64,000 bases of DNA from Candidatus Freyarchaeum deiterrae (GCA_037305845.1 CP147778.1:576001-640000), one strand, 5' to 3'; shown: positions 13,694 to 60,672, numbered from the stretch's first letter. Notes: generated from the letters alone by a model not told the origin. Translations and numbers: made by a program.

Positions 13694-13885
13694 TTCTAAA
13701 AACTTCTTTTTTCATTTTTTATTTTTTTAAAAAAGAAATGCTATCGTATTTTTGATTATTACTATTTCTACTTTTTGCTTCATAGTTCCTGCAATTAATT
13801 TTAAATAAGAGTTAAATAGTAGAATACAGTTATTAAAAAGAAAATTAATTTTCTCTTCAAAAAAGTATAGAGGAGAGAGTAAAGA

Positions 13886-15607: not shown

Positions 15608-15798
15608 CCCTTAAAACTTTTTTTCATTTCTATTCTATTTTTTGTAGTTTTATTTTAAAGATTTAGTCAAGGTTGTACATAATCTTGTTTTTTGTGAGAT
15701 TATTTCATTTTTTAATATTATTACTGTTTGTGGTATTGTTTATTAATTCGTAGAACGATAAAGTATAAAGCATAATGCTATTATGGTAGGTTTTATTT

Positions 15799-26900: not shown

Positions 26901-27776
26901 GGGAATTCTACTGTTAATACTCTTACGAGTAACAATGCAAACAACAACACAGGCAACGGCTTCTACCTAGATGTCAGCTCGAACAACAATACTCTTACTG
27001 GTAACAACGCAAACAACAACTCTCAATACGGCTTCAGACTATCCTCCAGTTCGAACAACACTCTTACAGGTAACACAGCAAACAACAACGGCCTCGGCGG
27101 CTTCTACATAGACCCCAGCTCAAACAACACTCTCTCAAATAACAACGCAACTAACAACTACTACGGCTTCTACCTGTACAACAGCTCAAACAACACTCTC
27201 TCAAATAACAACGCAACTAACAACTACTACGGCTTCTATTTGAGTGGGAATTCTACGGGTAATAGCATAGTAAACAGCACTGCTTTAAACAATATTAATG
27301 GAGTATACGACTGGTCTACTTGTACAGGCGTCAATGATTTGGATTATTATCTATGTGTGAATGTTACGGGTGTTTCGGGTTCCCCGCTGTCTGGCGCGGA
27401 TGTTGAGGTTTTGAGCAATGCAACGGTTGTGTACACTACTACAACTGGCTCGAATGGTCTCACCTCTTGGATCGCTGTCCCCTATCAGACGTTCACGGCA
27501 AATGGCACGATGACTAATAACACTATCACTGTTACTGTGCAGTATTCCGTTTCAAACATTTCGAGAACGGTAGACATGTCCTCGTCGCATATGGAAACAT
27601 TCCAGTTCACACAGGTGGCTGGGCCGTCTTCAATGCTTCCTGTGATGCTGTTGCTTTTGGCTGGTGAGCAGAGTGGTGTTAGTCCTATGGTTTACGGTGC
27701 TGTGGGCATTGCCGTTGTGGTGGGTGTGGTTCTTGTTGCTGGTTTGGTCTACTACTTCCGAAGAATGAACGCTTAA
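23907..27776 (+). CDS. Membrane-anchored right-handed beta-helix (NosD/CASH-like) surface glycoprotein, 1289 aa
   Basis: N-terminal basic plus hydrophobic leader, roughly 45 22-24-aa GFxLxxSSNNTLSGNTANNN coils, an Ig-like domain, a C-terminal TM helix and YYFRR tail; dense N-X-S/T sequons. Confidence 0.9.
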   Translation: MMKSILRNKKTLRIAVVLAAVLLSTTILAATTIQNQNQNANPLISVYMQGIPQSPNAVIQPKQDIGVNWDFSGNQSESINVTADNIVINGHGYYLLGSGSGNGFRLTGRHNVTIINVQVTGWSTGFRLDSGSNNNNFTNNTANNNTQYGFYLDSGSNNNTLSNNTANNNTNNSGFYLYNSSNNTLSGNTANNNTKEFGFVLYSSSNNTLSGNTANNNLYGFDLYSSSNNTLSGNTANNNTNTGFSLGSSSNNNNFTNNTANKNTKNCGFVISDSSNNTFTGNNTANNNVFGFEIVGSSNNNTFSGNTANNNSNAVNNGAGFLLGSSLNNNTLSNNNATNNDHGFWLDSGSNNNTLSANNANNNSYGFYLISSANNTLTSNNTANNNIYGFYLISNSNNNILSGNTANNNSYGFYLESSSNKNNLTSNTAKYNTYGFYLNSSSNNNTLSGNNATNNQHGFWLYSSSNNTFTGNNATNNNNEGFHLESGSNNNTLSGNTANNNTMHSGFYIYSSSNNTFSGNTANNNTNEAGFYIYSSSNNNNFTGNTANNNYYGFWLYSSSYNTFTGNNATSNNNTGFSLGSSSNNNNFTGNNATSYNNTGFSLSSSSNNNLTGNTANNNNDGFEIVGSSNNNALTGNTANNCQNNGFYIYSSSNNTLSGNTANSSNNTGFYLFSSSNNNTLTGNIANNDAGYGFYVTSSSNNTFTNNTANNVNNGFGFWLIHSSYNNLTNNTANYNNICGFDLYYSSHNNLSGNNANNNSQYGFLLATNSKNNILTGNNANNNGDGFSLGDNSNNNDLTVNTADNNTQNGFYLQYCPYNNLTGNTANNNSQFGFWLYSSSYNTFTGNNATSNNNTGFSLSSSSNNNNFTGNTATSNNNTGFSLSSSSNNNLTGNTANNSDFGFEIVGSSNNNILMSNTANNNNEGFYLTSSSNNTLTSNNATNTINFGFYLVSSLNNTLTSNNATNTNGYGYILWNSSYNILSINAAINNNDTGFYLVGNSTVNTLTSNNANNNTGNGFYLDVSSNNNTLTGNNANNNSQYGFRLSSSSNNTLTGNTANNNGLGGFYIDPSSNNTLSNNNATNNYYGFYLYNSSNNTLSNNNATNNYYGFYLSGNSTGNSIVNSTALNNINGVYDWSTCTGVNDLDYYLCVNVTGVSGSPLSGADVEVLSNATVVYTTTTGSNGLTSWIAVPYQTFTANGTMTNNTITVTVQYSVSNISRTVDMSSSHMETFQFTQVAGPSSMLPVMLLLLAGEQSGVSPMVYGAVGIAVVVGVVLVAGLVYYFRRMNA
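25561..26640 (+). repeat. About 240-bp internal block duplicated at an 840-bp offset (25561-25800 versus 26401-26640)
   Basis: Line-by-line near identity between the two blocks. Confidence 0.9.
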
Positions 27777-42724: not shown

Positions 42725-45628
42725 TTAAGCTTTCATTCTTCGGAAGTAGTAGACCAAACCAGCAACAAGCACCACACCCACCACAACGGCAACGCCCACA
42801 GCAGCGTAGACCATGGGACTAACGCCGCCCTGCATACCAGACAGTATCAATGCGTAAAACGCTGGAAGCATTAGAGTCACATTCACCTGGAACGGTTCCA
42901 CGTGTGATGTGGACATGTTAACCGTCCTAGGGTTGCTTCCTGAGACGGAGATCCCCTGGTAGTACACGGTAACAACGGTGGTGTTCGTAATCATGGTATC
43001 GTTTGTTATGAATGTCCTGTAGGTGACCGCAATCCAGGGGGTGACACCATTAGAATCGGTTGTGGGGTCTGTACCACCACTAAAGTGTGACGAGCGATAC
43101 ACACTTGTTCCATCGGTCACAACATTAACGTCCGCACCCGAAATAGGGAAGCCCAGAAGATCGATGACATTCACACGCAGATAGTAAGTCACTGCGCAAC
43201 CCGTAAAATCATTGATGCCAGTACAAGTAGACCAGTCATATCCCCCATTTGTATTGTTTAAAGCAGTGTTACCTGTGATGTTATTACCCGTAGAACTCCC
43301 ACTCAAATAGAAACCCCAATAGTTGTTGTTTGCATAGTTATTTGTAAGATTGTTGTTCGAGCTGGAGTCTAGGATGAAGCCGTAACCTGTATTGTTGGTT
43401 GCGTTGTTACCCGAAAGAATATTGTACGAGCTGGGATCTATGAGGAAGCCGCCGTAGCCGTTGTTGTTTGCAGTGTTACCTGTAAGATTGTTGTTCGAGC
43501 TGGAGGATAGGTGGAAGCCGTATTGGTTGTTGTTGTTTGCGGTGTTACCCGAAATAATGTTGTTGTTCGAGCTGATGTTAAGGTAGAAGCCGCTGTTGGT
43601 GTTTTTGTTTGCGGTGTTGCCCGAAAGAGTATTATTGTTAGCGCTGGCGATTAGGCCGAAGCCGTATTGGTTGTTGTTGTTTGCTGTGTTACCCGTAAGA
43701 GTATTGTAAGAGCTGCTCCATATGTAGAAGCCGCCGTTGGTATTGTTTGTGGCATTGTTACCCGAAAGAATATTGTTGTTCGAGCTGGAGTACACCCAGA
43801 AGCCGATGGTGTTGTTTGTAGCTGTGTTACCCGAAAGATTATTGTTTTCCGCGCTATTGTACAGCAAGAAGCCTCTTTGTTGGTTGTTGTTTGCTGTGTT
43901 ACCCGAAAGAGTATTGTTCGAGCTGGAGAGTAGATAGAAGCCGTCGAAGGTGTTGTTGTTTGCAGTATTACCCAAAAGAATATTATTGCTATAGCTTTGA
44001 TACAGGTAGAAGCCGTCGCCGGTGTTGTTGTTAGCGTTGTTACCCGAAAGATTATTGTAAGAGCTTTCGTCTAGGTAGAAGCCGTAGTTGTTGTTTGTGG
44101 CGTTGTTACCCGAAAGAGTATTGTAAGAGCTGTAGTACAGGTGGAAGCCGTAGGCGGTGTTGTTGGTTGCGTTGTTACCCGAAAGAGTATAGTTCGAGCA
44201 AAAGTATAGGAAGAAGCCGTCGGGGTTGTTGTATGCAGTGTTACTAGAAAGAGTATTGTAAGAGCTGGAGTTTAGGTAGAACCCCAAAACGTGGTTGTTG
44301 TTTGCTGTGTTACCCGTAAGAGTATTGTTGGTCGAGCTGGAGTCTAGCCAGAAGCCGTATTGAGTGTTGTAGTTTGCCGTGTTACCCGTAAGAGTATTGT
44401 TAGAGCTGGATAGGTAGAAGCCATATTGGGTGTTGTTTGCTGTGTTACCCGAAAGAGTATTGTTAGAGCTGGATAGGTAGAAGCCGTAGTGGGTGGTGTT
44501 GGTTACTTTGTTACCCGAAAGAGTATTGTTGTACGAGCTGCTCCATAGGTAGAAGCCGTCTTGGATGTTGTTGTTTGCTGTGTTATTTGTAAGATTGTTG
44601 TACGAGCTGGCGTATATGTCGAAGCCGTCTTGGGTGTTGTTGTTTGCGTTGTTAACAGAAAGAGTATTGTTTGCGCTATTGTCTAGGTAGAAGCCGCTGT
44701 TTGTGTTGTTTGTGGCGTTGTTACCCGAAAGAGTATTGTTGTTCGAGCTGACGTTAATGTAAAATCCGTCGGTGTTTTTGGTTGCCGTGTTACTCGAAAG
44801 AGTATTGTTGTTAGCCGTCGCGATTAGGTTGAAGCCGTCTCTACTGTTGTTGGTTGCATTGTTACCCGAAAGAGTATTGTTACGGCTGGCGGCTACGAAG
44901 AAGCCGTCTCTACTGTTGTTGGTTGCATTGTTACCCGAAAGAGTATTGTAGTAGCTGCTGTGTAGGTAGAAGCCGTCGATGCTGTTGTTGGTTGCGGTGT
45001 TATTTGTAAGATTGTTGTTTGAGCAGGAGAGTAGGCCGAATCCTAATTGGGTGTTGTTGTTTGCAGTGTTACCCGAAAGAATGTTGTTAGAGTTATTGAA
45101 CAGGTAGAAGCCGTACCAGTAGTTGTTGTTTGCGGTGTTACCAGAAAGAATATTGTAGTTCGAGCTATTGTCTATTAAGAAGCCGTATTGTGTGTTGTTG
45201 TTTGCCGTGTTACCTGAGAGCGTGTTGTTTGAGCTGGAGTTTAGGAAGAAGCCGATTTCCCACCCTGTGACTTTGACGTTCTTTATGGTCACGTTGCTTC
45301 TGCCAGTCAAGTTGAAGCCCAACCCGGATCCAGAGCCCAGCAGGTAGTATCCGTGTCCGTTTATCACTATGTTGTCAGCCGTAACATTTATCGGTTGAGA
45401 TTGGTTTCCTGAAAAATCCCAGTTAACCCCGATGTCCTGCTTGGGTTGAATGATGGTGTTAGGACTCTGGTGGATGCCCTGCATATAAACGCTGATTAGA
45501 GGATACGAGTTTCGGTTCTGGTTTTGGGTTTGGTTTATGGTAAATGTGAGGATGGTTGCTGTGAGTAGAACTGCTGCTAAAACTACTGCTATCCTTAGGG
45601 TTTTTTTGTTTCCCCTGATGTTTCTCAT
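42725..45628 (-). CDS. Membrane-anchored beta-helix surface glycoprotein, 967 aa, inverted paralog of 23907..27776
   Basis: Same leader and C-terminal TM/YYFRR tail; roughly 30 coils. Confidence 0.9.
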   Translation of the reverse strand: MRNIRGNKKTLRIAVVLAAVLLTATILTFTINQTQNQNRNSYPLISVYMQGIHQSPNTIIQPKQDIGVNWDFSGNQSQPINVTADNIVINGHGYYLLGSGSGLGFNLTGRSNVTIKNVKVTGWEIGFFLNSSSNNTLSGNTANNNTQYGFLIDNSSNYNILSGNTANNNYWYGFYLFNNSNNILSGNTANNNTQLGFGLLSCSNNNLTNNTATNNSIDGFYLHSSYYNTLSGNNATNNSRDGFFVAASRNNTLSGNNATNNSRDGFNLIATANNNTLSSNTATKNTDGFYINVSSNNNTLSGNNATNNTNSGFYLDNSANNTLSVNNANNNTQDGFDIYASSYNNLTNNTANNNIQDGFYLWSSSYNNTLSGNKVTNTTHYGFYLSSSNNTLSGNTANNTQYGFYLSSSNNTLTGNTANYNTQYGFWLDSSSTNNTLTGNTANNNHVLGFYLNSSSYNTLSSNTAYNNPDGFFLYFCSNYTLSGNNATNNTAYGFHLYYSSYNTLSGNNATNNNYGFYLDESSYNNLSGNNANNNTGDGFYLYQSYSNNILLGNTANNNTFDGFYLLSSSNNTLSGNTANNNQQRGFLLYNSAENNNLSGNTATNNTIGFWVYSSSNNNILSGNNATNNTNGGFYIWSSSYNTLTGNTANNNNQYGFGLIASANNNTLSGNTANKNTNSGFYLNISSNNNIISGNTANNNNQYGFHLSSSSNNNLTGNTANNNGYGGFLIDPSSYNILSGNNATNNTGYGFILDSSSNNNLTNNYANNNYWGFYLSGSSTGNNITGNTALNNTNGGYDWSTCTGINDFTGCAVTYYLRVNVIDLLGFPISGADVNVVTDGTSVYRSSHFSGGTDPTTDSNGVTPWIAVTYRTFITNDTMITNTTVVTVYYQGISVSGSNPRTVNMSTSHVEPFQVNVTLMLPAFYALILSGMQGGVSPMVYAAVGVAVVVGVVLVAGLVYYFRRMKA

Positions 45629-47068: not shown

Positions 47069-48004
47069 TTGACCAGCGTCATAGAAGTAAGCAATCTCAC
47101 CAAGTACTACGGCGAGCAAACAGCGGTCGACCACATAAGCTTCAAGGTGAAGGCGGGTGAAGTCTTCGGCTTTCTTGGTCCAAATGGTGCAGGTAAGACC
47201 ACAACCATCAGGATGCTCACCGGAATAATTGAGCCGGATGAAGGAACAGCACAAATAATGGGATACGATATTCGCCGCCAAACAGTAAAAGCCAAGGAGC
47301 TAATGGGAATTTTGCCAGAAACATCAAATGCATACGTAGACCTCTCCGCTTGGAACAACCTTATGCTCATGGGAGAAATATACGGAGTTCCAAAAAAAGA
47401 GAGAGAAGAAAAGGCTAAGGAATTACTTCAGAGGCTCGGTCTTTACGAGAGAAAGGATGATCACGTAAAAGGCTTTTCCCAAGGGATGAAGAAAAGACTA
47501 ATGATATGTATGGCTCTGATACACAGCCCCCCGCTCCTATTTCTGGACGAACCCACAAGTGCACTCGATGTTCAGAGCACTAGACTCATCCGAGATATGC
47601 TCAGAGAACTAAATGAAAACGACACAAGCATATTTTTAACTACCCACAACATGGAAGAGGCGAATCTGCTATGCGACAGAGTCGCCATAATTAACCATGG
47701 GAAAATAGCAGCAATAGATAGCCCTGAAAAGCTGAAAAGCAGAATTGGTGGATTGAACTCGGTGGAGGTTAGCTTTACTTCTTCCCCAAAATTAGAAAGA
47801 TTAGCAGAAATAACCAACGTAAGAGAAGTTAAAAAGTTTGGAGATAAGTTCAGATTGTACACAAGCAATCCCAGTGAAGTAATAGCTCAAATAATGGAAT
47901 ACACCCAGAAAAACGATTCACAAATTGTGACTCTTCAAACTCTTGCTCCAACCCTAGAGGATATATTCGTCAAGCTCACAGAAGAGAAAGGAAGGAGTAA
48001 ATAA
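47069..48004 (+). CDS. ABC-2 exporter ATP-binding subunit, copy 1
   Basis: GPNGAGKT, FSQGM, LDEPT and TTH motifs. Confidence 0.95.
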   Translation: MTSVIEVSNLTKYYGEQTAVDHISFKVKAGEVFGFLGPNGAGKTTTIRMLTGIIEPDEGTAQIMGYDIRRQTVKAKELMGILPETSNAYVDLSAWNNLMLMGEIYGVPKKEREEKAKELLQRLGLYERKDDHVKGFSQGMKKRLMICMALIHSPPLLFLDEPTSALDVQSTRLIRDMLRELNENDTSIFLTTHNMEEANLLCDRVAIINHGKIAAIDSPEKLKSRIGGLNSVEVSFTSSPKLERLAEITNVREVKKFGDKFRLYTSNPSEVIAQIMEYTQKNDSQIVTLQTLAPTLEDIFVKLTEEKGRSK

Positions 48005-48007
48005 ACT

Positions 48008-48763
48008 ATGACAGTTAAAGTGAGACATATTACGCAAAGTAAGCGTGCCTTTGTTATCGCAAAGAAGAATATTCGCATATACTACCTTAAAGGACCGGTA
48101 ATCACTTTCGGGATATTGATGCCGGTGTTCCTTGCCTTAGCTTTCTCTATTGGAAGAAATGTTTCCTTAAGCTCACTAATGCCCGGCTTATTTGCAATGA
48201 CTCTGTTCTTTACGGCAACAGCTGTAGGCCCACTAATCATGCCATGGGAAACTACCATGAGAACCCTTGAGAGATTGGTATCCACTCCAGCGAGCCTCCC
48301 CGCAATCATATTAGGGGACGTAATTGCCTCAGTTATCTTTGGGATCATCATATCTGTCGTGCCTCTTGTAGTTGGAGTATTTACGGGCGTAACCATAGCA
48401 AATTTCCTAATACTAATAGTAGGTATGGTAATTGCAGCATTCTGCTTTTCTTGCCTCGGAGAATTGTTCTCTGTACCTCCTACATCTATGCCAGCCCCGG
48501 TAATGATGCTTGCATCGGTTGTAAGATTCCCCTTGGTATTCATCAGTGGAATTTTTATACCAGTAGAACAATTGCCCGGATGGGGGCAAGCAATAGCACT
48601 CTTCTCCCCCCTCACTTATTTTACAGACCTAGTAAGATACGCTACTCAGGGGTCAGGGTATTTCCCAGTATTTGTGGACATAGGAATGCTCATACTGTTT
48701 AGTGCGATCTTCCTTTTTGCAGCAATAATCATCCACAAACGAAACCTATCAAAAAGGTTTTAG
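48008..48763 (+). CDS. ABC-2 permease, copy 1
   Basis: About six TM segments; SGIFIP...SPLTY motif. Confidence 0.92.
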   Translation: MTVKVRHITQSKRAFVIAKKNIRIYYLKGPVITFGILMPVFLALAFSIGRNVSLSSLMPGLFAMTLFFTATAVGPLIMPWETTMRTLERLVSTPASLPAIILGDVIASVIFGIIISVVPLVVGVFTGVTIANFLILIVGMVIAAFCFSCLGELFSVPPTSMPAPVMMLASVVRFPLVFISGIFIPVEQLPGWGQAIALFSPLTYFTDLVRYATQGSGYFPVFVDIGMLILFSAIFLFAAIIIHKRNLSKRF

Positions 48764-48775
48764 AAACGATTTTAA

Positions 48776-48800
48776 GAGGCTTGAAGCCTCAACTTTTTTT
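48776..48800 (+). terminator. Inverted repeat plus T7
   Basis: gaggctt-g-aagcctc followed by aac and seven T. Confidence 0.5.
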
Positions 48801-48973
48801 CTCATCAGGTCTAAATATTTACCTAGCTATGCAAGTCTAGCACAAGTGAATCATTTTAAAAAAAGCCCTAGAAGAATCATATAAAATCCAAAATAGGTAT
48901 ATATTTAGCCTTTTTTGGTTTTTCAGCTTTAGAACGTACTTAAGCATGATTCGCAAGATTATTGCAATGATGG

Positions 48974-49133
48974 ATGTGTCTGACAAAGAATCCGTTGCCG
49001 AAGCCCTTGGAAATCACCATGCTGGGCTATGAGGTAGTCGAGAAGATAGAAGCTCTACACCACATCGGCCAGAATACTACTCCCAAAAGATTGGGTCGGA
49101 AAAAGGGTCAGAGTTGTCCGACTGGCCTCCTAA
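48974..49133 (+). pseudogene. Frameshifted DUF2080-like (transposon-associated, AbrB-like) small gene
   Basis: ...GYEVVEKIEA then, after a frame change, TTSARILLPKDWVGKRVRVVRLAS*. Confidence 0.6.
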
Positions 49134-49300
49134 AAGGACGGTTGGGAGAAGAGCTAAGTACATACGATAATAAAAAAGATTTTTTTATAAATCTAATAAT
49201 CTTAAAATAGATAAGAGGCTTCAATCTCCGAAAGGCGTAAATTTAGACATGGTTACACATGCTAATTGTAAAATTTTAGATTATTACTAGAGGACTTGAA

Positions 49301-49495
49301 ATGTTTATTAATATTCTCGGAACTACTGGCATGTGCGGATGTCCAAGTCATTATTTGAGACCAGGATTCGGAGAAGGCGTAACGGAAATCTTAACAAAAG
49401 GGGAAAGGACAGAAACGCTAAAGGATTACAAAAGAATCCCAGAGAAAGAGCTTGAAAGTGTGAATTGGGGAATGAGAAGGCTCAAAGGAGAATAG
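49301..49495 (+). CDS. Degenerate second copy of the DUF5320-like protein
   Basis: GMCGCPSHYLRPGF...KDYKR.PEKELESV aligns to 46831..47049 but the N-terminus differs. Confidence 0.5.
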   Translation: MFINILGTTGMCGCPSHYLRPGFGEGVTEILTKGERTETLKDYKRIPEKELESVNWGMRRLKGE

Positions 49496-49513
49496 AGGGG
49501 GGCATTAAGTACA

Positions 49514-50440
49514 TTGAGCAGTATCATAAAAGTAAGTAATCTTACCAAGTATTATGGCGAGCTAACAGCTGTCGATCACCTAAGCTTCGAGGTTGAGAAG
49601 GGAGAGTTCTTCGGCTTTCTTGGCCCAAATGGGGCGGGTAAAACCACCACCATCAGGATGCTCACCGGGATAATTGAGCCGGATGAAGGAACAGCACAAA
49701 TAATGGGTCATGATATTCGCCGCGAAACAGTAAAGGCCAAGGAGGTTATGGGAATTTTGCCAGAAACGGCAAATGCGTACGTAGACATCTCCGCTTGGCA
49801 CAACCTTATGCTCATGGGAGAGCTCTATGATGTTCCCAAAAAAGAGAGAGAAGAGAGGGCTAAGGAATTACTTGAGAGGTTTGATCTTTACGATAGAAAG
49901 GATAGTCATGTAAAAGATTTTTCTCATGGAATGACGCAAAGATTGATGATATGTATGGCTCTAATACACACGCCCCCGGTTCTATTTCTGGACGAACCTA
50001 CAACTGCACTCGATGTTCATAGCACTAGGCTCATCCGAAGCATGCTTCGAGAACTAAATGAAAATGGAGTCACCATATTTTTAACAACTCACAATATGGA
50101 AGAGGCTAATCTACTGTGTGAGAGAGTAGCTATCATTAACCATGGGAAAATAGCAGCAATAGATAGCCCTGAAAAGCTTAAAGTCAGAATTGGCGGATTG
50201 AACTCGGTGGAGGTTAGCTTCACCTCGCCCCCTAATTTAGAAGAATTAGCTGAAATACCTTCAGTGAGGGAAGTGAAAAGATTTGGAGATAAGGTCAGAC
50301 TGTACACCAGTAATCCTGGTGAGGTAGCAATGAGCGTAACTGAGTATGCGCAAAAGATTAATTCGAGTATAGTGACTATTCAGACGCTTTCCCCAAACCT
50401 TGAGGAAGTGTTTGTTATGCTCACAGAGGGAAAGGAGTGA
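49514..50440 (+). CDS. ABC-2 exporter ATP-binding subunit, copy 2
   Basis: Walker motifs; close paralog of copy 1. Confidence 0.95.
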   Translation: MSSIIKVSNLTKYYGELTAVDHLSFEVEKGEFFGFLGPNGAGKTTTIRMLTGIIEPDEGTAQIMGHDIRRETVKAKEVMGILPETANAYVDISAWHNLMLMGELYDVPKKEREERAKELLERFDLYDRKDSHVKDFSHGMTQRLMICMALIHTPPVLFLDEPTTALDVHSTRLIRSMLRELNENGVTIFLTTHNMEEANLLCERVAIINHGKIAAIDSPEKLKVRIGGLNSVEVSFTSPPNLEELAEIPSVREVKRFGDKVRLYTSNPGEVAMSVTEYAQKINSSIVTIQTLSPNLEEVFVMLTEGKE

Positions 50441-50449
50441 AAGGCAACT

Positions 50450-51205
50450 ATGATATTTAACGGAGGATTCAATAAGCAAATGAAACATGCACTTGCTATA
50501 GCAAAAAAGGACATTCGTATATACTACTTAAAGGGCTCAGTATTCACTTTCGGAGTATTAATTCCTTTATTCCTCTTCTTAGCGTTCTCCGTTGGAAGAA
50601 ATATTCCTATAGGTCAACAGATATCCGGCTTATTGGGAATGACTCTGTTATTTACGGCAACAGCTGTAAGCCCGATAATCATGCCATGGGAAGGGACTAG
50701 GAGAACACTTGAGAGATTGGTTTCTACTCCGGTCTCTCTTTCAACGATCATACTGGGGGATGTAATTGCTTCGTTCATATTTGGAATTATTATATCTATT
50801 GTGCCTATTGCTGCCGGGCTAATTATTGGCGTACCCATAGAGAATCCTATAATACTGGTAGTGGGGATAATACTTGCATCATTCTGCTTTTCTTGCATCG
50901 GAGAACTGTTCGCCACACCACCCACAAACGTACCCTCCACGATAATGATGCTTTCGTCGCTAATAAAATTCCCACTATTATTTGTCAGCGGAATCTTCGT
51001 ACCAATTCAACAATTGCCCGGATGGGGGCAGGCAGTAGCGGTCTTCTCTCCCCTCACCTATTTTACAGACCTAGCAAATTATGTAACTCAGGGGTCGGGG
51101 TATTTCCCAGTATTTGTGGACATAGGAATGCTCATACTGTTTAGCGCGATCTTCCTCCTCGCAGCAATATATCTCCACAAGCGAACTCTATCAAGCAGAC
51201 TATAA
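50450..51205 (+). CDS. ABC-2 permease, copy 2
   Basis: Paralog of 48008..48763. Confidence 0.92.
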   Translation: MIFNGGFNKQMKHALAIAKKDIRIYYLKGSVFTFGVLIPLFLFLAFSVGRNIPIGQQISGLLGMTLLFTATAVSPIIMPWEGTRRTLERLVSTPVSLSTIILGDVIASFIFGIIISIVPIAAGLIIGVPIENPIILVVGIILASFCFSCIGELFATPPTNVPSTIMMLSSLIKFPLLFVSGIFVPIQQLPGWGQAVAVFSPLTYFTDLANYVTQGSGYFPVFVDIGMLILFSAIFLLAAIYLHKRTLSSRL

Positions 51206-51434: not shown

Positions 51435-52601
51435 CTATTTACAACTAGTCTTGGTTATTTTCTCGGGAACAGGGGTTATTTTCTCCTTGAATAGTTTCTT
51501 TTTGAGCCAGAAGGAAACGGTTACCAGGTTTATGAGTACTGGAACCTCTATTAGTGGTCCTATAACTGCGGCGAATGCCTGACCCGAGGCTATGCCGAAA
51601 ACCCCTATGCAGACCGCTATTGCCAACTCAAAGTTATTACTTGCAGCCGTGAAGGATATGGTTGCTGTTTGCTCATAGCTAAATCCTAGACGCCAAGACA
51701 TCACGTAAGACACTAGGAACATTATAAAGAAGTATATGAGCAAGGGTATCGCAATTCTTAGGACATCAAAGGGATGAGTAAGGATTTTTCCACCCTGCAG
51801 TGAGAACATTACAACAACGGTGAAGAGTAGACCCACCAAAGCTGTTGGAGCAAGTTTGTTAACAAAGTGGCCATCGTACCACGCTTTTCCTCTTCTCTTG
51901 ACCAGAGCGTATCTAGTGATCATACCCGCAAAGAGTGGTACGCCCAAATAAATTGTAACACTCTTAGCTATATCAAGAAGTGATATGTTTACCGTCACAG
52001 CGCCTGTTAGGCTCAGTATCCAGGTGGGTACCCCTAGGAGTGTTAGAATCCCGCTTGATCCCGCAAGCCATGTCGGTGTTCCGGTGAGCCATGAGGGCAG
52101 TAGGGTGATAAACAGGTAAGCTAATGGAGAGTACATTATTATTTGGAAAACCGAATTTAGGGCGACCAGAACCGCGCAGAGTTCACACTCTCCTCTTGCG
52201 AGCTGGTTCCAAACAAGAACCATTGCTATGCAGCGAGCTAGGCCAACAATTATAAGCCCCATCCGGTATTCTGGTAAATCCGGGAGGAAAATCCATGCTA
52301 GTATAAACATTAGGATTGGACCAATGATCCAGTTTTGAACTAGGGAGACCCCGAACGCTTTTTTTTCTCCGCGGAGTTTTGAGAGTTCTTCGTATTTTAC
52401 TCTAGCAAGAGGCGGATACATCATCCATACGAGGCCTATAGCGATGGGTAGTGAAACAGCACCTAAACTCAATTCGTTAAGGAATCCGGGAATCTCAGGA
52501 AACAGGGCGCCTAGTAGAACGCCTATAGCCATGGCAATAAAAATCCACAGGGTTAGAAATCTGTTCAAAAGTGAGAGCTTTTCAGCTTGTTGCCCCGACA
52601 T
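51435..52601 (-). CDS. acr3: Acr3 arsenite efflux permease
   Basis: [29 protein letters not shown] and GPLIEVPVL motifs. Confidence 0.96.
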
Positions 52602-52680: not shown

Positions 52681-52704
52681 ATATATCGATAAATGTAAAT
52701 ATAT
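52681..52704. promoter_or_regulatory. Putative ArsR box A (upstream of acr3)
   Basis: ATATATCGAT-AAAT-GTAAATATAT, similar to three other island sites. Confidence 0.5.
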
Positions 52705-53128: not shown

Positions 53129-54586
53129 GTGACCACGAGCGGGATAACATCTTCGGTAGAGGTTTTAAAATCTACCATCGATAACAGATTTGTGCGTTTT
53201 CTTTTAAGAAGGCTAACCAGTAAGTGCGAAAAGGATGGCAAGAGCCGCCTAGGTGTCGCTCTGGAGCTCTTCTCAGGCGCAAGAGAAAAGGGTTGTTTCA
53301 CGTGCAGCCATTTAGCTCTACCTATTGTTCGCTGGGCTATAGGCAGGGGAGGATCGGCATTTGGTGTTTCGGGAGAGGATATGAAAAATAGATTCAAGGA
53401 TCCTTACTGGTGCACTGGTCTTATAGATGTGATTAAGGGAATTGCAAAGTATGGCATAAAAAAACCATTCGTTCCCGGTGCGCCGTTCCTGATTGTGTGG
53501 GATTACACAAACGCCTGCAACTTGAAATGCAAACACTGCTACGCCTCTGCTGGAAAACCCTTACCTAACGAGTTGAGTAGTGAAGAGGCACTTAGAATTG
53601 CGGACGAGCTTGCCGATGCCGGAGTTACCGCTGTTGCCTTTTCAGGTGGAGAACCCTTGATGCGAAAAGACATTTTCAAAACCATAAAACGTCTGAGAGA
53701 CCATGGAGTGTACCCAGCCGTGGCATCAAACGGGACTCTCATAAACAAAGAAATGGCTAAGAAACTTGCGAAAAGTGGTGTGGGTTTTGTGCAGATAAGC
53801 CTCGACGGAGCAAATTCCAATACCCACGACAGTTTTCGTGGCATACCCGGAGCGTACGAGGAAACGCTCTTAGGAATAAAGAACTGCGTCGAAAACGATT
53901 TATTTGTTGAGGCATCAACTACAGCCACAAAACTGAACTATTTGGAGATTCCAAGAATCGCAGATCTATGCGAGGAGCTTGGCGTTGACTGGTACATGAT
54001 TTACAACTTTGTGCCGACGGGTAGAGGGAACTTCATCACAGAAAACGACCTCTCTCCAGAGGAGAGAGAAGAACTACTCAAAACGCTGTGGAAAAGACTA
54101 CGTAATGGTGGAAAAATGCAATATCTGTCCACCGCTCCTCAGTTTGCAAGAGTCGCCCTACAAGATGAAAATGGATCGGAAAATAGGATTATACCAGGGC
54201 ACTTCTACAATCCTGTTCTTGCGGACCAGCTTCAAAACTTGGGAGATTTTATCGGTGGATGTGGAGCGGGGAGAATGTATGCAGGTCTTGAACCAGATGG
54301 TACTCTTAAGCCATGTGTTTTCCTGCCATTAAAATTGGGAAATCTTCGGGAGCAGAAACTTGAAGAAATATGGGACAGCCACCCTATTCTGAAAACTCTT
54401 AGAGACAGAACCCAGCTGAAAGGAAATTGTAGGAAATGCCAGTATAGAGAAATGTGTGGAGGATGCAGAGCCAGAGCCTACGGATACTTCGGTGACATCA
54501 CCGCTCCTGACCCGGGATGCATAAACAACACAGATGCTTTCGAAAAAATAGTAGAAAAAGAAAAGGAAAAAGAGATCAGTATTTGA
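53129..54586 (+). CDS. Radical SAM protein with SPASM domain and Cys-bearing N-terminal extension
   Basis: CNLKCKHC, SGGEP, GCGAG and CRKCQYREMCGGCRARA...DPGC; N-terminal KC...CFTC. Confidence 0.92.
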   Translation: MTTSGITSSVEVLKSTIDNRFVRFLLRRLTSKCEKDGKSRLGVALELFSGAREKGCFTCSHLALPIVRWAIGRGGSAFGVSGEDMKNRFKDPYWCTGLIDVIKGIAKYGIKKPFVPGAPFLIVWDYTNACNLKCKHCYASAGKPLPNELSSEEALRIADELADAGVTAVAFSGGEPLMRKDIFKTIKRLRDHGVYPAVASNGTLINKEMAKKLAKSGVGFVQISLDGANSNTHDSFRGIPGAYEETLLGIKNCVENDLFVEASTTATKLNYLEIPRIADLCEELGVDWYMIYNFVPTGRGNFITENDLSPEEREELLKTLWKRLRNGGKMQYLSTAPQFARVALQDENGSENRIIPGHFYNPVLADQLQNLGDFIGGCGAGRMYAGLEPDGTLKPCVFLPLKLGNLREQKLEEIWDSHPILKTLRDRTQLKGNCRKCQYREMCGGCRARAYGYFGDITAPDPGCINNTDAFEKIVEKEKEKEISI

Positions 54587-54739
54587 ACAAATCGCTGCAT
54601 ATCAATCTGAACTTCTCTATTTTTCTTCAATTGCAGGATGCCCTTCAATTTCTTCTCAAATGATTCTGTGCTAAAAAGGTTTTAGAGATTTATTTGAAAG
54701 AGACATTAAGTTACATCTATTTTATCAATTTAATGGAAA

Positions 54740-55165
54740 TCATTGGTTTTCATAAAGTTCGTCTACTTTTTTTACAATTTCTTCCGCGATTTTCTCTGCT
54801 AATTTGTAACCCGCATCGCCTAATTCTTCTCTGGAATTAGGAATCAGATCAGGGTGTTTTTCCATTATTTCTTTTACTCGAACAGTTGCTGCCACAGGAC
54901 CGCTATAATTTTCTACTGCAATTTTGGCGCATTCTTCTTCGCATCCTTCAATTGTGATGGTTGGGTGGGTTTCTGCGAATTCTCTTTCTTCATTTCCACC
55001 ATGTCTTTCTAATCCCCCTGCCATGAATAGTGGTTGACACAGAATTACAGTCTTATCTGGGCGTAGCTTTTCAACAACTATTCTGGCAGCAGCTCGAGAC
55101 AGGGTGCCCTCAACTAAATTTTCTCCGCTGCATGCGATAATCCCAATTTTCTGTTTTATGGGCAC
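54740..55165 (-). CDS. DGC-domain (putative metal-binding) protein, type B copy 2
   Basis: ACSG...LCQP...EGCEEECA four-Cys pattern. Confidence 0.85.
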   Translation of the reverse strand: MPIKQKIGIIACSGENLVEGTLSRAAARIVVEKLRPDKTVILCQPLFMAGGLERHGGNEEREFAETHPTITIEGCEEECAKIAVENYSGPVAATVRVKEIMEKHPDLIPNSREELGDAGYKLAEKIAEEIVKKVDELYENQ

Positions 55166-55602
55166 TAGTAATCACCCTCCTTTTTTTCTCCCAGTAACTC
55201 ATCAATTTTTTGTGTGATTTTTTCCGCAAGTTTACGAGATAATTTTTTCGCGTTTTTTCCTAAAGGAAAAACACTTTCCTCGGGTTTTAAATCACGGTTT
55301 TCTTTCAATATATCTGTGGTCATGAATTGAGCATCAACTTTTCCAACAGCTTCGGAAACATCATTATACGCACACTTGAGAGGGCAACCATCAATCACAA
55401 TGACCTTGTTCGATTTTAGTTTATCAATCACTTCCTTTTTACCTTTAACAATTAATGGAAGACATTCAATATCAGACTTGCCTTTAGCTAACTCATTCAC
55501 CACAATATATGCAGCTTCTCTGCCTAGTCCACCAAAAACTTTTCCGATTCCACTGCAAGGAAGTACATAAACTATTTTATTTGTTAATTTAATCGCCTCC
55601 AC
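55165..55602 (-). CDS. DGC-domain protein, type A copy 2
   Basis: PCSG...CLP...DGCPLKCA. Confidence 0.85.
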   Translation of the reverse strand: MEAIKLTNKIVYVLPCSGIGKVFGGLGREAAYIVVNELAKGKSDIECLPLIVKGKKEVIDKLKSNKVIVIDGCPLKCAYNDVSEAVGKVDAQFMTTDILKENRDLKPEESVFPLGKNAKKLSRKLAEKITQKIDELLGEKKEGDY

Positions 55603-56470
55603 TTTTTTTCATGTGTTTTCTTTCCTCTTCTATTTTCTTTTTCATATGCTCAAAATAAGCAGGTCCGTCCATTAGCAATTCTTTATCTTCTTCAAAATTT
55701 TTCAATTCTACTTCTACAAACCATCCTCCACCATAAGGGTCTTGATTCAATAGATGCGGTGAAGCTTCTAATTCCTTGTTCACAGCAGTAACTTTGCCTG
55801 AAGCGGGAGTAATCAGTTGAAGAATAGTCTTAATAGATTCAAAGGATCCGACATCACCGAACTGCTCAAATTCTAAACCAATTTCGGGAAGTTCGACAAA
55901 AATTATGTCACTCGCTTTATTTTGGAGAAAATCGGAAATACCCATAAGTGCTTTTTCACCATTGGGTTTTACCCAACAATCATTTTCATTAAAATAGTAG
56001 CCAGACTTAGGAACTTTGAAATGAAATTTGTCTACAGTAGTTTCAAAATATTCAATTTTGCCTAATTCCCGAACTTCAGTTACTTCTTCCCTTGATTCTT
56101 TTAGATAATCCAAAATCTCTGTTGCCATACACCCCGCTAACTTTTGCCCTTCCTCACTCAAAATGAGAGATTTTCCCGGCTTTAACTTATATTTTTTAGT
56201 CATGTCAGGAGTAAAGATTTTTTTCCTCGGTTTTAGGGATTTTTGATCAATCAACTTGGTTGCACAGCGAGTCATACACCCATCAATCACAATTATATCA
56301 GATTCCTTCAAAATCTCTTCATATTTTTCGTTACCAGTATTTAATAGAACTGGACATATTAGCTCAATATCAGGATCTTTTTCTATTACTTTTAATGCAG
56401 CATTTCTAGTAATTACGCCTAGAGATTTATCAAGTCCATTGCACGGTAAAATGCAGACTTTTTTTTTCAT
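55589..56470 (-). CDS. DGC domain fused to a GcvH-like lipoyl-carrier domain
   Basis: N-terminal PCNG...CPV...DGCMTRCA; C-terminal WV...GISDF...ESIKT (Lys214, codon 55831-55829)...NQDPYGGGW. Confidence 0.9.
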   Translation of the reverse strand: MKKKVCILPCNGLDKSLGVITRNAALKVIEKDPDIELICPVLLNTGNEKYEEILKESDIIVIDGCMTRCATKLIDQKSLKPRKKIFTPDMTKKYKLKPGKSLILSEEGQKLAGCMATEILDYLKESREEVTEVRELGKIEYFETTVDKFHFKVPKSGYYFNENDCWVKPNGEKALMGISDFLQNKASDIIFVELPEIGLEFEQFGDVGSFESIKTILQLITPASGKVTAVNKELEASPHLLNQDPYGGGWFVEVELKNFEEDKELLMDGPAYFEHMKKKIEEERKHMKKSGGD

Positions 56471-56476
56471 TGAGGC

Positions 56477-56785
56477 TCACCTTGTTTCGTTTTCCTTTCT
56501 TTGTTTTTTAATTAATTCGGTAATTTCCTTTTTATCTGGAAATGAAAGAGCATCCGGGGCACATGTTTTGGCGCAAGCCCGACAAAAAACCACACAATTG
56601 TATGGATTTTTAACTATCAATTTCTTGTCTTCATTTTCTCTTCTTTCATAGACATTGTGAGGACAAAACTTGTCGCATTCCATGCAGAAATTACATTTAT
56701 TATAATCGATTGTAGGGAACCAAGGAATTTTTTTTCGAGGAACCCCCATAAAAGTCTCTTTATCTGCATCATATTCTTTACTCAT
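56477..56785 (-). CDS. 4Fe-4S dicluster ferredoxin-like protein
   Basis: CNFCMECDKFCP and CVVFCRACAKTC. Confidence 0.9.
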   Translation of the reverse strand: MSKEYDADKETFMGVPRKKIPWFPTIDYNKCNFCMECDKFCPHNVYERRENEDKKLIVKNPYNCVVFCRACAKTCAPDALSFPDKKEITELIKKQRKENETR

Positions 56786-57168
56786 TTTTTCCCCTCCTTC
56801 TTTTCATTGTACTCGTTTAATGTTTTTTCGACCAATTCTACAGCTTCATCAGTTGTCTTTTCTCGTACATCAAGTGGTATAAGGTCTTTTTCTACATCAA
56901 GTCCTGCTTTTTTAAAAGCGTCTCGAAACAATTTGTATTGCATATTAGGAGCACATCCGGCAACCAGATACTTTCTTCCAGGACGCAAAAAATCACCTAG
57001 AAAGCGATCTCCATCAACCTCACAAAGCTGAGGATGAATAAACGCATACTCCACGGGGAGTTCTACCCGTACTCGGTTAATAAAATCCCAAATATCCATT
57101 TTTGCAAACCCAGGACATTTACCAGTGCATACGCACATTATAACTCCAACATTTTTTTCTTCGCTCAT
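56782..57168 (-). CDS. Stand-alone protein resembling the HdrA N-terminal domain
   Basis: VGVIMCVC...QLC..DG...VAGCAP...FR....AGL...DVRE parallels the HdrA N-terminus (GVYVCHC...C...VAACSP...NIRE). Confidence 0.75.
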   Translation of the reverse strand: MSEEKNVGVIMCVCTGKCPGFAKMDIWDFINRVRVELPVEYAFIHPQLCEVDGDRFLGDFLRPGRKYLVAGCAPNMQYKLFRDAFKKAGLDVEKDLIPLDVREKTTDEAVELVEKTLNEYNEKKEGKK

Positions 57169-57272
57169 TTTAATTATTCTCCTTTTTTATGATATTCATC
57201 AAAATTTTTTGATGCTTCTAAATAACTATGCCTTTTTACTCGATTAACTAAAGCTAATTTATCAACTATTTT

Positions 57273-57713
57273 TCATTTCTCTTGTTCTTCCTCGTTCGTC
57301 TGTTTCATTTCGCTTAGTATTCTGTCCACTTCCTCTGCGATTTTCTCCGCAACTCTCTGAGCCAGCTTTTCGCCTTCTTCATCTAGTTTAGCTCTGGATT
57401 CAGCTTTGAGCTTACATTCATTCATTATCTCGGGAATCTGAATTACCGCAGCCAAGTTTCCTTTATGCTTTCTAATACTCTTTTCAGCACATCTCTTGTC
57501 ACAACCATCAACGACAATTGTGGGTTGTTTCTTAACAAAATCCTGATCTTCTTTTCCACCAGCAAGGTAGAGAGGTAAGCAGATTGTCATGGTTTGGGTG
57601 GGTCTTAACTTCTCCAAAACGATACGCACAGCAATCCTGGTGACTGTTCCCTCCGGTATTTCTTCACCACTGCAAGGTACAATTCCCACTATAGGTATCA
57701 TCAACACCTTCAA
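57273..57713 (-). CDS. DGC-domain protein, type B copy 1
   Basis: PCSGEE..EGT...CLP...DGCDKRCA. Confidence 0.85.
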   Translation of the reverse strand: MKVLMIPIVGIVPCSGEEIPEGTVTRIAVRIVLEKLRPTQTMTICLPLYLAGGKEDQDFVKKQPTIVVDGCDKRCAEKSIRKHKGNLAAVIQIPEIMNECKLKAESRAKLDEEGEKLAQRVAEKIAEEVDRILSEMKQTNEEEQEK

Positions 57714-58108
57714 CCTCCTTCAGACTCTAATATCCTATCAATTTCTAGTGCAATTTTTTGAGCCATTATTTCTGCTAACCTTTTCCCCTTTGGGTCAAGT
57801 TCTCTTATGGCAGTTTGATTAGGCTTCAAGTCTCTGTTTTCTTTCAGCACACTGGTAACATTAACTTTGTTAACTATTCTTCCGCCAGCGTTTTTGACCG
57901 CTAACTCTGCACACTCTGTTGGGCAACCGTTAATAACGATACATAGGTTCTCTTGAACGAGCCTCCTAGCATCATCGTCCCCCACCACCAGCAACGGTAG
58001 ACAAGTGATTAAGGTTTTTTCTGGTCTCAGTTGCTCGACAACCTTGTAGGCTGCTTCGCGTGTAATTGTTCCAAAAACTTTTCCCACACCACTGCACGGT
58101 AAAACCAC
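57710..58108 (-). CDS. DGC-domain protein, type A copy 1 (homology extends to CTG at 58123)
   Basis: PCSGVGKVFG...CLP...NGCPTECA. Confidence 0.8.
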   Translation of the reverse strand: MVLPCSGVGKVFGTITREAAYKVVEQLRPEKTLITCLPLLVVGDDDARRLVQENLCIVINGCPTECAELAVKNAGGRIVNKVNVTSVLKENRDLKPNQTAIRELDPKGKRLAEIMAQKIALEIDRILESEGG

Positions 58109-58115
58109 AACTTTT

Positions 58116-58235
58116 TTAGTCAGCTTTCAATTCCTCCTTTATTACTTTCTTTACGCCTAGGTTCCATCCACCCTTTGCGATAGATACTGGCAAAATTCTA
58201 ACCTCTTGTTCCTTTTTGAATTTCTCATTCCCATA
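58116..58235 (-). pseudogene. Short remnant reading frame at the head of the DGC operon
   Basis: AGGAGG and ATG at 58234; a shifted frame reads GNEKFKKEQEVRILPVSIAKGGWNLGVKKVIKEELKAD* and its stop overlaps the start region of the next gene. Confidence 0.35.
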
Positions 58236-58314: not shown

Positions 58315-58338
58315 ATTTATCGTTTCATGACGATATAT
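58315..58338. promoter_or_regulatory. Putative ArsR box B (upstream of the DGC operon)
   Basis: ATTTATCGTT-TCAT-GACGATATAT imperfect palindrome. Confidence 0.5.
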
Positions 58339-58875: not shown

Positions 58876-59166
58876 TTAAACGTTTGATGCCTTTATAGCA
58901 TCCTGAGGTGCCTTTAGGGCATCTTGAATTGTTTTTTCCAATTTTTCTGCTTTGAAAAACTCGGGAAACTTTTCGGTGCCGTTTACCACCAGTCCCTTAC
59001 TACCGATATTGAGTTCTCTGGCTTCCTCCGATGAGGAAGATTTTATATCAAATTCGACCTGGTTTCGGTATTTTGTGAGTACATTAAAAACTCGATCCAT
59101 GAATGCGGAGAATTGACAGGAACAGGAGCCTACGGGAATGAAAATATCTATTTTAACTTTGGACAT
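58876..59166 (-). CDS. Small thioredoxin-like/ArsD-like protein with CxC
   Basis: KIDIFIPVGSCSC...LVVNG fold pattern; GGAGG upstream. Confidence 0.6.
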   Translation of the reverse strand: MSKVKIDIFIPVGSCSCQFSAFMDRVFNVLTKYRNQVEFDIKSSSSEEARELNIGSKGLVVNGTEKFPEFFKAEKLEKTIQDALKAPQDAIKASNV

Positions 59167-59316: not shown

Positions 59317-59340
59317 ATTTATTGGTATATGACAATATAT
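59317..59340. promoter_or_regulatory. Putative ArsR box D (between the CxC gene and arsR)
   Basis: ATTTATTGGT-ATAT-GACAATATAT, with an overlapping variant at 59335 (ATATATCAAT-AATA-GTAAAATTAC). Confidence 0.45.
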
Positions 59341-59706: not shown

Positions 59707-60036
59707 TTGGCCATCGAGAAATTAATTACGAAAAAAAATGTGGAGTTATTGAAAGCATTAGCAGATGAAACAAGATTGAAAATACTTCAGTTTTTGGGCG
59801 TGGAGGAGAAGTGTCAGTGTGATATTGTCCCTGCTATGGAAAAATCGCAGTCCACAATTTCTCAACACCTTCAAATTCTAACAAATTCGGGAGTTCTGGA
59901 GTACCGAAAAGATGGACAGAGAAGCCTCTACAAATTGAGAGATGAAAGAATACACAAAATAACCGAATTAATTAATAGCATTTCCAAAGATTCCCTTTTA
60001 GAAATATCCAAACTAGCAAAATCAATCAAAAAATAG
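59707..60036 (+). CDS. arsR: ArsR/SmtB repressor with an alpha3 CxC metalloid site
   Basis: KALADETRLKIL, EKCQCDI (compare ELCVCDL) and SQSTISQHL. Confidence 0.9.
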   Translation: MAIEKLITKKNVELLKALADETRLKILQFLGVEEKCQCDIVPAMEKSQSTISQHLQILTNSGVLEYRKDGQRSLYKLRDERIHKITELINSISKDSLLEISKLAKSIKK

Positions 60037-60237
60037 GAAAGAAACGATCTGCTTTACCATCGCTTGAAAAAATGAGCCTTAATAGAGATGGTTTTATCTC
60101 TTTTAGAATTCAATTAATTTAAAAATAAGAATAAAAAAATAAAGGTAGAATATTAATATATTGTATTTCACTATGGGTTTGTAACTCATTAGGCAAGGGG
60201 ATATCTTATTGAAATAACGCGTTTTGTGTAGATGTTT

Positions 60238-60672
60238 TTACGGGGCTTTCACCTATGTGGTGAATTTGTAGTGATGATCCTCTTCTTATTGGAGTATTTG
60301 CTCAAAGAGGAATTTAGTTGTGACATCCTTTTCTTTCGTGGCTACATCGATTATCTTTTTGTACATGTCAATTGCGCTTTGTTCAGCGTTAATGTCCAGT
60401 TTAATCATTTCTTCCAAGTTTTTACCTATGGTGATGGGGGCGGGTTTGGTTGTTGGGTCACCGCCGAGATAGTTGAGTCTTTCCGCGATGCTTTCGGCGT
60501 GTTTCATTTCTTGAATGGCTATCTGTTTTAGTTCCTCAACTATTGCTACACTTATATAGCCGGTGGCCTTTACGTGCTGACACATGTACTGGATAGATAC
60601 TTGTAGTTCTGCGGCTATGGCCTTGTTTAGCCAATCTTTTAACTCCGCACTCGCTAATTCGTCCACCTCCAA
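60238..60672 (-). pseudogene. Ferritin-like (bacterioferritin-type) gene inactivated by nonsense mutations
   Basis: ELQVSIQY and EMKHAE motifs; the frame continues ILQ*(60288-60286)EEDHHYKFTT*(60255-60253)VKAP*, so the stop cuts off the last ExxH helix. Confidence 0.8.

Follow-up and report, generated by a model that had tools for sequence, protein, structure and literature searches.

Protein-bound lipoamide serves as a detoxification reductant in the Lpd-DlaT-AhpD-AhpC peroxidase relay of Mycobacterium tuberculosis, in which electrons pass from reduced nicotinamide adenine dinucleotide (NADH) through dihydrolipoamide dehydrogenase (Lpd) to the lipoyl group. The affinity of As(III) for dihydrolipoamide is high. 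Lipoyl carriers with the fold of the glycine-cleavage H-protein (GcvH) are also found outside glycine cleavage, as in the sHdr-LbpA systems, where the carrier is accompanied by Hdr-derived Fe-S proteins and often by a lipoate ligase of its own (bioRxiv 10.64898/2026.10.01.755906). By the criteria given in the literature, LbpA proteins have conserved cysteines near both termini and a basic ligase-binding surface. DGC-family genes (PF08859) are mentioned only once in the searchable literature, in work on Pseudodesulfovibrio mercurii ND132, whose arsR-arsP-thioredoxin-DGC operon is arsenic-induced and which produces a thioarsenic species of undefined identity (bioRxiv 10.1101/2022.10.17.512643). 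The subject of this report is a gene cassette at positions 54740-58108, on the (-) strand, of a 64,000-nucleotide stretch (hereafter the window) of the genome of Candidatus Freyarchaeum deiterrae (GCA_037305845.1, CP147778.1:576001-640000). The cassette encodes a DGC-GcvH fusion with a putative lipoylation site, several free DGC proteins, a ferredoxin and a small protein, here called X, that resembles the N-terminal domain of HdrA. It is real, conserved and apparently undescribed, and its newness rests on architecture, not on demonstrated chemistry.

Comparison with Described Systems

An earlier reading of the window (the sequence-only reading) had likened the cassette to sHdr-LbpA. As an analogy the likeness stands, both systems having a GcvH-fold lipoyl carrier outside glycine cleavage and Hdr-derived Fe-S proteins; the lplA-like genes found in 33 of 157 cassette loci may or may not encode a dedicated ligase. 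It does not extend to the catalytic parts: the cassette has only an isolated HdrA-N-like domain, with no flavin domain and no HdrB/C, and matches to the CCG domain of HdrB/C-type subunits occur in 3 of about 180 loci, none of them in the core. Its carrier is DGC-fused, acidic in the manner of GcvH, and without the N- and C-terminal cysteine pair of LbpA; its hosts are anaerobic heterotrophs and acetogens, and its neighbours are arsenic resistance (ars) genes. Like described ars operons, the cassette comes with an ArsR of the CxC type, acr3, a thioredoxin-fold neighbour and DGC-family genes, with which it is often physically integrated. Unlike them, it has no core protein that is a characterised Ars protein, and none of the seven products in the window matches ArsC, ArsM, ArsD, ArsH or ArsI in Pfam or NCBIfam. 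In the searchable papers, ars operons are described without a lipoyl carrier, an HdrA-N-like protein or a ferredoxin. The M. tuberculosis relay is echoed by genes of the CMD/AhpD family in about 11 cassette loci; it differs in that the cassette carrier is an H-protein-DGC fusion and not an E2, and in the Fe-S core, the optional AhpD, the absence of a peroxiredoxin and the arsenic context. No core protein matches a family of the SAO system (SaoA/B/P/X ABC transporter, SaoL, SaoE), and the SAO paper (Haft and Gwadz; bioRxiv 10.1101/2022.07.06.499078) mentions neither DGC nor glycine cleavage. With the comparisons to GcvH and HdrA given below, the cassette falls outside glycine cleavage, sHdr-LbpA, HdrA and SAO. 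A search of titles and abstracts that combined lipoyl or GcvH with ars terms returned no description of it, most subscription papers lying outside that search.

A Conserved Five-Gene Core

Seven co-directional open reading frames occupy the cassette, as the sequence-only reading had proposed, and its further claims of mostly overlapping genes and of a cysteine cluster in every product are equally sound: four of the six junctions overlap (gaps in transcription order of -4, +104, -4, +6, -14 and -1 nt), and each product has 4-8 cysteines. The 104-nt gap is the boundary between an extra pair of DGC genes and a core of five genes. The extra pair consists of a gene of the CSG(V/I)GK type (57710-58108; PF08859, E 5.6e-16; an alternative CTG start at 58123 is possible) and one of the CSGE type (57273-57713; E 1.7e-14). 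The core comprises X (56782-57168), the ferredoxin (56477-56785), the DGC-GcvH fusion (55589-56470; PF08859 and GCV_H) and two free DGC proteins (PF08859), of the CSGIGK type (55165-55602) and the CSGE type (54740-55165), each with four invariant cysteines. The extra pair is a second copy of the core pair, its first gene being 45% identical to 55165-55602 and its second 43% identical to 54740-55165. In genomes of the same lineage this pair is either divergent from X (loci L001 and L002 of our numbering) or missing; the true unit is therefore the five-gene core, to which a lineage-specific DGC pair has been added.

With an alignment of the fusion as the query, GTDB genome contigs yielded 434 relatives and metagenomes at least 436. 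A total of 160 loci were read. The 55 loci (17 archaeal and 38 bacterial) with at least 8 kb on both sides are termed well-flanked. The order X, ferredoxin, DGC-H, DGC (CSGIGK), DGC (CSGE) is intact in 94 of the 108 loci with enough flank. Carriers include Asgard archaea, Bathyarchaeia, Bacillota (Acetobacterium, Eubacterium, Clostridium and Desulfosporosinus), Synergistota, Actinomycetota and Chloroflexota, among others. X is present in 51 of 301 sampled Asgard genomes, and its identity across the two domains of life is 60-82%.

The DGC-GcvH Fusion

The fusion consists of a DGC domain (residues 1-128), a low-confidence linker and an H-protein domain (about 150-283), with GCV_H matching residues 158-278 (E 2.3e-30). 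The modelled H domain fits onto pea H-protein with a Z score of 22.4 and a root-mean-square deviation (rmsd) of 1.0 over 131 residues. Lys214, which had been picked out as a retained lipoylation lysine, aligns with the lipoyl lysine of solved H-proteins and is invariant in 150 of 150 sequences as well as in 18 further loci, some of which are duplicates. Like glycine-cleavage GcvH (PF01597, TIGR00527), the domain thus has the fold, the lipoyl lysine, an acidic ligase-recognition surface typical of canonical-ligase substrates (isoelectric point 4.66; acidic residues 188, 193, 196 and 211) and, in bacteria, a pairing with Lpd. Unlike GcvH, it bears an N-terminal DGC domain, falls narrowly under the gcvH cut-offs (TIGR00527, 109 versus 115.85; NF002270, 111.3 versus 117) and has the HEW cavity motif replaced by DCW, the family as a whole having DCW, DFW or DAW. 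The single cysteine of the H domain, Cys165, is placed by the DCW motif at the cavity position of E. coli GcvH Glu14; it is about 90% conserved, gives way to Phe or Ala in other Asgard lineages and is also present in another H-protein of this genome.

Homologue searches for gcvP and gcvT drew a blank both in the window and in about 180 fetched loci, and those for gcvL, arsC and arsM did so in the window, as had been stated from the sequence. Lpd (TIGR01350, over cut-off) is encoded in 18 of the 38 well-flanked bacterial loci; it immediately precedes X in 16 of 32 cases and has the His-Glu motif in 25 of the 32. A gene for an lplA-like lipoate ligase occurs in 33 of 157 loci, this window not being one of them. 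The recruitment of a ligase and a reductase without P and T argues for an arm that would be lipoylated and cycled between redox states in some process other than glycine cleavage. In several bacterial loci the gene ahead of X, inside an acr3-arsR divergon, is a second, stand-alone H-protein-like one (PF01597) whose lipoyl lysine is no longer present (L112:8687-9235, L116, L118, L126, L128 and L146).

X, the Ferredoxin and the DGC Proteins

X, a protein of 128 residues, has no match in Pfam or NCBIfam. Its description as a stand-alone HdrA-N-like protein is upheld by both profile and fold similarity, with a profile match to residues 5-93 of a solved HdrA structure (7bkb_A; E 2.6e-4) and with HdrA chains as the top five Foldseek matches of its model. 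The likeness to the N-terminal domain of HdrA in methanogen HdrABC-MvhD covers about 90-100 residues in sequence and fold, with four cysteine positions in common. Unlike HdrA, X stands alone, without the thioredoxin-reductase domain that binds flavin adenine dinucleotide or the ferredoxin domains in the same chain; it is without the EQC cysteine and the HdrA-motif histidine and gains C18 and H45. Six of its residues are invariant (C12, C14, C18, H45, C49 and C72), and profile, fold and conservation point to X as a probable Fe-S protein. The adjoining gene encodes the predicted dicluster ferredoxin, a 2[4Fe-4S] protein with eight conserved cysteines and a Fer4_10 match over cut-off. Among longer proteins, a weak test, no credible natural fusion of X with other core proteins was found, and one apparent X fusion looks like a frameshifted read-through. 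A complex prediction with X, two DGC proteins and the fused DGC domain (score 0.00, mark 0.32) gives evidence neither for nor against an assembly. In two Asgard genomes of 1.3-1.4 Mb, X forms an operon with one or two ferredoxins and arsR (L167:8812-10169 and L179:9787-11200), flanked by metallo-hydrolase-like and ferritin-like genes.

All five DGC domains of the window exceed the PF08859 cut-off (E 2e-11 to 3.5e-18), and they are the only DGC domains of the genome. Their copy number varies by lineage, with extra pairs here and in L001, L016 and L081. The free DGC proteins keep their four cysteines without exception and may hold Zn or an Fe-S cluster; zinc binding by DGC is a proposal of the literature only. 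In the fused domain C10, C65 and C69 are invariant, and C39, the second cysteine, is lost in several Asgard lineages; the remaining three would be compatible with a three-thiolate As(III) site. The best structural matches of DGC are generic alpha/beta proteins (3pu6, Z 10.6, rmsd 2.9, 115 residues aligned; HybD, Z 8.4; flavodoxins), and no informative solved DGC relative was found. The comparisons gave no clear sign of a relationship of DGC to MvhD or the HdrA N-terminal domain, the hhalign probability of DGC against X being 1.2% and MvhD lying outside the 50 best structural matches.

Arsenic Linkage

The sequence-only reading had proposed a cross-genome test of co-occurrence with ars genes, and its result is positive. 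Genes specific to arsenic (acr3, arsA/D/C/M/P/G) are present in 35 of the 55 well-flanked loci (8 of 17 archaeal and 27 of 38 bacterial) and arsR in 52 of the 55; the chance rate of acr3 or arsM in random 21-kb windows of this genome is 1.2%. Representatives of Acr3, ArsA, ArsD and ArsM all exceed their NCBIfam cut-offs. An independent second sample outside the first loci, Asgard family f7, has acr3 in 7 of 8 loci, and in four genomes of this family acr3 precedes X, on the strand of X, at a distance of 28-108 nt. The ArsR proteins next to the cassette carry the alpha3 CxC motif in 71 of 71 cases, and the regulator scores far below the persulfide-sensor model BigR (36 versus 155 bits). MtrA-like corrinoid genes stand by acr3, arsC or arsM in 5-6 bacterial arsenic islands (L044:76-771, L112:3215-3946, L118, L128 and L145); the identification of this cluster as hgcA was rejected.

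In the window itself the operon had been placed between acr3 and arsR. Both do flank it, acr3 (arsenite efflux) at 51435-52601 on the (-) strand (TIGR00832, 427.7 bits against a cut-off of 282.8) and an ArsR/SmtB repressor gene with an alpha3 CxC site (C36, C38) at 59707-60036 on the (+) strand (NF033788, over cut-off), but neither adjoins it directly. A radical SAM/SPASM gene (53129-54586, (+)) lies between operon and acr3, and a gene for a CxC thioredoxin-fold protein of 96 residues (58876-59166, (-)) between operon and arsR. The latter is an archaeal accessory found in 30 of 54 archaeal loci, with the CxC invariant and TM scores of 0.66-0.71 to Thioredoxin_3 models, and is the probable counterpart of the bacterial MTH895/ArsE-type thioredoxin. 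ArsD was rejected as its identity (profile comparison probability 0.6%), the fold being that of thioredoxin.

Regulation

A 24-bp imperfect palindrome, a candidate ArsR operator, lies about 190 nt upstream of the operon (58315-58338), with a second copy between the CxC-thioredoxin gene and arsR (59317-59340) and a third 80 nt upstream of acr3 (52681-52704). Scored with a matrix built from just two orthologous sites, both in other genomes, these sites rank 1, 2 and 8, respectively, among 3.58 million genome positions, and the copy upstream of the operon is conserved in two related genomes. The pattern supports a single putative regulon of operon, thioredoxin-like gene and acr3, with the caveat that all three sites are AT-rich and so possibly a promoter element. 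Loci of the Lokiarchaeia type have a 24-bp palindrome in the arsR/X divergon that differs from the one in this genome; it scores 18.3 bits in leave-one-out tests versus about 8 for shuffles, and 39 of its 40 strong matches in 664 kb fall in the arsR/X divergon, which often holds a second copy not used for training. Two other candidate operator sites in the window, at 57194 and at 59525, did not hold up in leave-one-out and cross-genome tests. The segment 57194-57217, in the 104-nt gap upstream of X, is a perfect inverted repeat (ATCAA-N6-TTGAT) that could be a separate operator or a hairpin. In RNA data a single 239-nt contig from one library spans 54398-54636, the end of the radical SAM gene, and is uninformative on the operon. 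The window adds to the picture the extra DGC pair, a palindrome common to the operon and the sole acr3, and the loss, in particular lineages, of Cys165 and the second DGC cysteine.

Proposed Function and Alternatives

Taken together, the readings that link the cassette to arsenic are likely to hold. The best of them, with a probability of roughly 0.45 on comparative grounds, is a lipoyl-dithiol relay that would reduce and/or capture arsenicals for efflux. The operon would be a module with which anaerobes, under ArsR control, detoxify arsenic (or antimony) by means of a lipoyl dithiol bound to protein. Binding of As(III) to the CxC site of ArsR would de-repress acr3, the thioredoxin-like gene and the operon together, whose co-location and shared palindrome are observed. 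Lys214 would be lipoylated by a lipoate ligase, which is cassette-encoded in many genomes and encoded elsewhere in this one. The lipoyl disulfide would then be kept reduced by ferredoxin via X and/or by NADH via Lpd, and X, with its five invariant cysteines and one histidine, may convert one-electron input into disulfide reduction. The dithiol and the DGC cysteine sites would reduce pentavalent and/or capture trivalent arsenicals, which would be passed to Acr3, ArsP or ArsD/ArsA for export. Feeding by ferredoxin, as first proposed, survives as one of two candidate inputs; electrons need not come from ferredoxin only, because bacterial copies often add an Lpd of their own. A stronger version, in which the five proteins form an oxygen-independent arsenic-transforming enzyme, with ferredoxin-fed X reducing the lipoyl arm and the arm reducing, dealkylating or desulfurising arsenicals at the DGC cysteines, is tentative and rather unlikely.

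Several observations weigh against the relay. The loci are not independent, as they include kin and duplicates and many relatives from Acetobacterium and Lokiarchaeia, and hence no P value is attached to the linkage. Arsenic-specific genes are missing from 20 of the 55 well-flanked loci (36%), including 9 of the 17 archaeal ones. Since arsC co-occurs in 20 of the 38 well-flanked bacterial loci, the cassette is not simply the missing arsenate reductase. In Lokiarchaeia-type loci no copy of the operator was found ahead of acr3, a gene that comes with a separate arsR there, so that co-regulation with acr3 is not universal. Cys165, neither universal nor specific, cannot be an essential As(III) ligand and, though attractively placed, is a less likely third ligand beside the lipoyl thiols. 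Finally, X, ferredoxin and arsR occur without DGC or H-protein in the two small Asgard genomes, which suggests that X and ferredoxin are a module of their own.

The 36% of loci without arsenic-specific genes, and the X-ferredoxin-arsR operons that stand beside a ferritin-like gene without arsenic genes, would also be expected of a general redox module for thiols, sulfur, selenium or soft metals under an ArsR-family repressor. Such a module, a reverse analogue of sHdr-LbpA, would repair disulfides or handle sulfane sulfur or selenium and would be found in arsenic islands only since stress genes cluster. Genes for SufS/selenocysteine-lyase-like proteins and Se/S carriers in 16 of the 38 bacterial loci, dsrE/F/H-yeeE-tusA in 6 archaeal loci, the CMD/AhpD-family genes and CDF transporters in 11 loci are in its favour. 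The regulator, however, has the alpha3 CxC site and lies far under the BigR score, acr3 stands in one line with the core genes in four genomes and has the operon's palindrome in this one, the cassette has no HdrB/C-type subunit, and only a few related lineages have the sulfur genes; a general module is an unlikely account.

Ranked just behind it, and likewise improbable, is a decoy or repair function, in which the fusion and the DGC proteins would form an inducible sink that takes up As(III) or MAs(III), or removes it from lipoyl enzymes and thiols already poisoned. The Fe-S proteins and Lpd would serve only to keep the thiols reduced; As(V) would not be reduced catalytically, and nothing would be handed directly to Acr3. 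Five DGC domains with 3-4 cysteines each, in lineage-variable copy number, would suit a sink, as would the arsC often present alongside the cassette, the lysine-less second H-like gene before X in several bacterial loci and the glycine-cleavage genes that this genome has to protect. X and the DGC paralogues, with many invariant non-cysteine residues, are nevertheless far more conserved than a passive sink would lead one to expect, and the gene order is fixed.

The arsenic genes that co-occur with the cassette include ArsP, ArsG, the ArsE-type thioredoxin and ArsM, and in 5-6 loci an MtrA-like corrinoid gene is present in the acr3-arsR divergon. These genes, together with hosts that are anaerobes of sulfidic sediments and soils, and with the thioarsenic species made by ND132, which has an arsenic-induced DGC operon (bioRxiv 10.1101/2022.10.17.512643), would fit an oxygen-independent conversion of organo- or thioarsenicals. 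Methylarsenate or thioarsenates would be reduced, or a C-As bond reductively cleaved, and the As or S moiety would travel on the lipoyl arm. Such chemistry is quite improbable, given that ArsM (12 of 157 loci) and corrinoid genes (6 of 157) are rare near the cassette and that the proteins show no recognisable catalytic fold beyond the generic flavodoxin-like/HybD-like alpha/beta. That the fusion is an ordinary glycine-cleavage H-protein in an incidental arsenic neighbourhood is very improbable, for although fold and lysine are intact and GcvP, GcvT and Lpd are encoded in the genome, no locus has gcvP or gcvT, the genome has four other H-family genes, the fusion lies below both gcvH cut-offs with DCW for HEW, and the ArsR/ars linkage is strong.

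Host Genome and Neighbouring Genes

The closest relatives of the fusion, at 82-83% identity, are from Freyarchaeota/Jordarchaeia, and the host is an Asgard archaeon of the Freyarchaeia-like kind; arsenic goes unmentioned in the paper on the complete Freyarchaeia genome of 3.58 Mbp, obtained from wetland soil (PMC11291895). The acr3 gene of the window is the single ACR3 locus of the genome, in which searches for arsC of the LMWPc and ArsC families gave no match. Outside the window, gcvP and gcvT are located at 1.265-1.269 Mb, and the genome also encodes four other H-family proteins, one dihydrolipoamide dehydrogenase, three lplA-like proteins and ArsM. One of its two lpdA matches is MerA, a mercuric reductase above the TIGR02053 cut-off (L163:7323-8723, about 2.843 Mb). 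The arsM gene, in the segment L161:8211-12854 (about 3.408-3.413 Mb), is preceded by a gene for an HgcAB-associated regulator of the HgcC family and adjoined by a catalase-peroxidase-like gene and a short radical SAM fragment; a DUF166 gene lies 3 kb away, and DUF166 directly follows the cassette in many Lokiarchaeia-type loci.

The radical SAM/SPASM gene at 53129-54586 (1.46 kb) is convergent with the operon, divergent from acr3 and outside the core. It matches no named equivalog above cut-off, and close homologues are present in just 12 of 157 loci; the arrangement of acr3, radical SAM gene and cassette recurs in L175, from another Asgard family. A ferritin-like gene (60220-60672, (-); PF00210, E 6.4e-23) is interrupted in frame by TAA (60286-60288) and, ten codons later, by TAG, the conserved EEDHH segment lying between the two stops, and is a probable pseudogene; intact homologues follow the X-ferredoxin-arsR operons of L167 and L179. 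Two tandem, similar ABC-2 transporter pairs of ATPase and permease (47069-51205, (+)) end just short of acr3, and similar pairs flank the cassette in some Lokiarchaeia-type loci. Farther away, the window holds, by inspection, a tandem array of four long-chain acyl-CoA ligase-like paralogues with an enoyl-CoA hydratase-like gene behind it (9697-17502, (+)) and genes for two surface proteins, very rich in Asn and parallel-beta-helix-like, that are nearly identical to each other in their N- and C-terminal segments (23907-27776, (+), and 42725-45628, (-)). At 578-4334, (-), are a HerA-type ATPase (PF01935) and, preceding it, a 641-residue protein without a Pfam match that has a NurA-like look.

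Implications

Cultured carriers, among them Acetobacterium, Eubacterium, Clostridium ragsdalei and Desulfosporosinus, make the cassette directly testable. If the lipoyl-dithiol relay is correct, lipoamide, the textbook target of trivalent arsenic, would have been turned into a defence against it. On the stronger, enzymatic version lipoate would for the first time be seen as a cofactor of arsenic resistance, one common to Asgard archaea and anaerobic bacteria. The system would provide a first function both for the DGC family and for a free HdrA N-terminal module. It would also explain how arsenicals are handled by anaerobes without arsC, as the present genome appears to be, and would bear on arsenic speciation in paddy soils, wetlands and aquifers.

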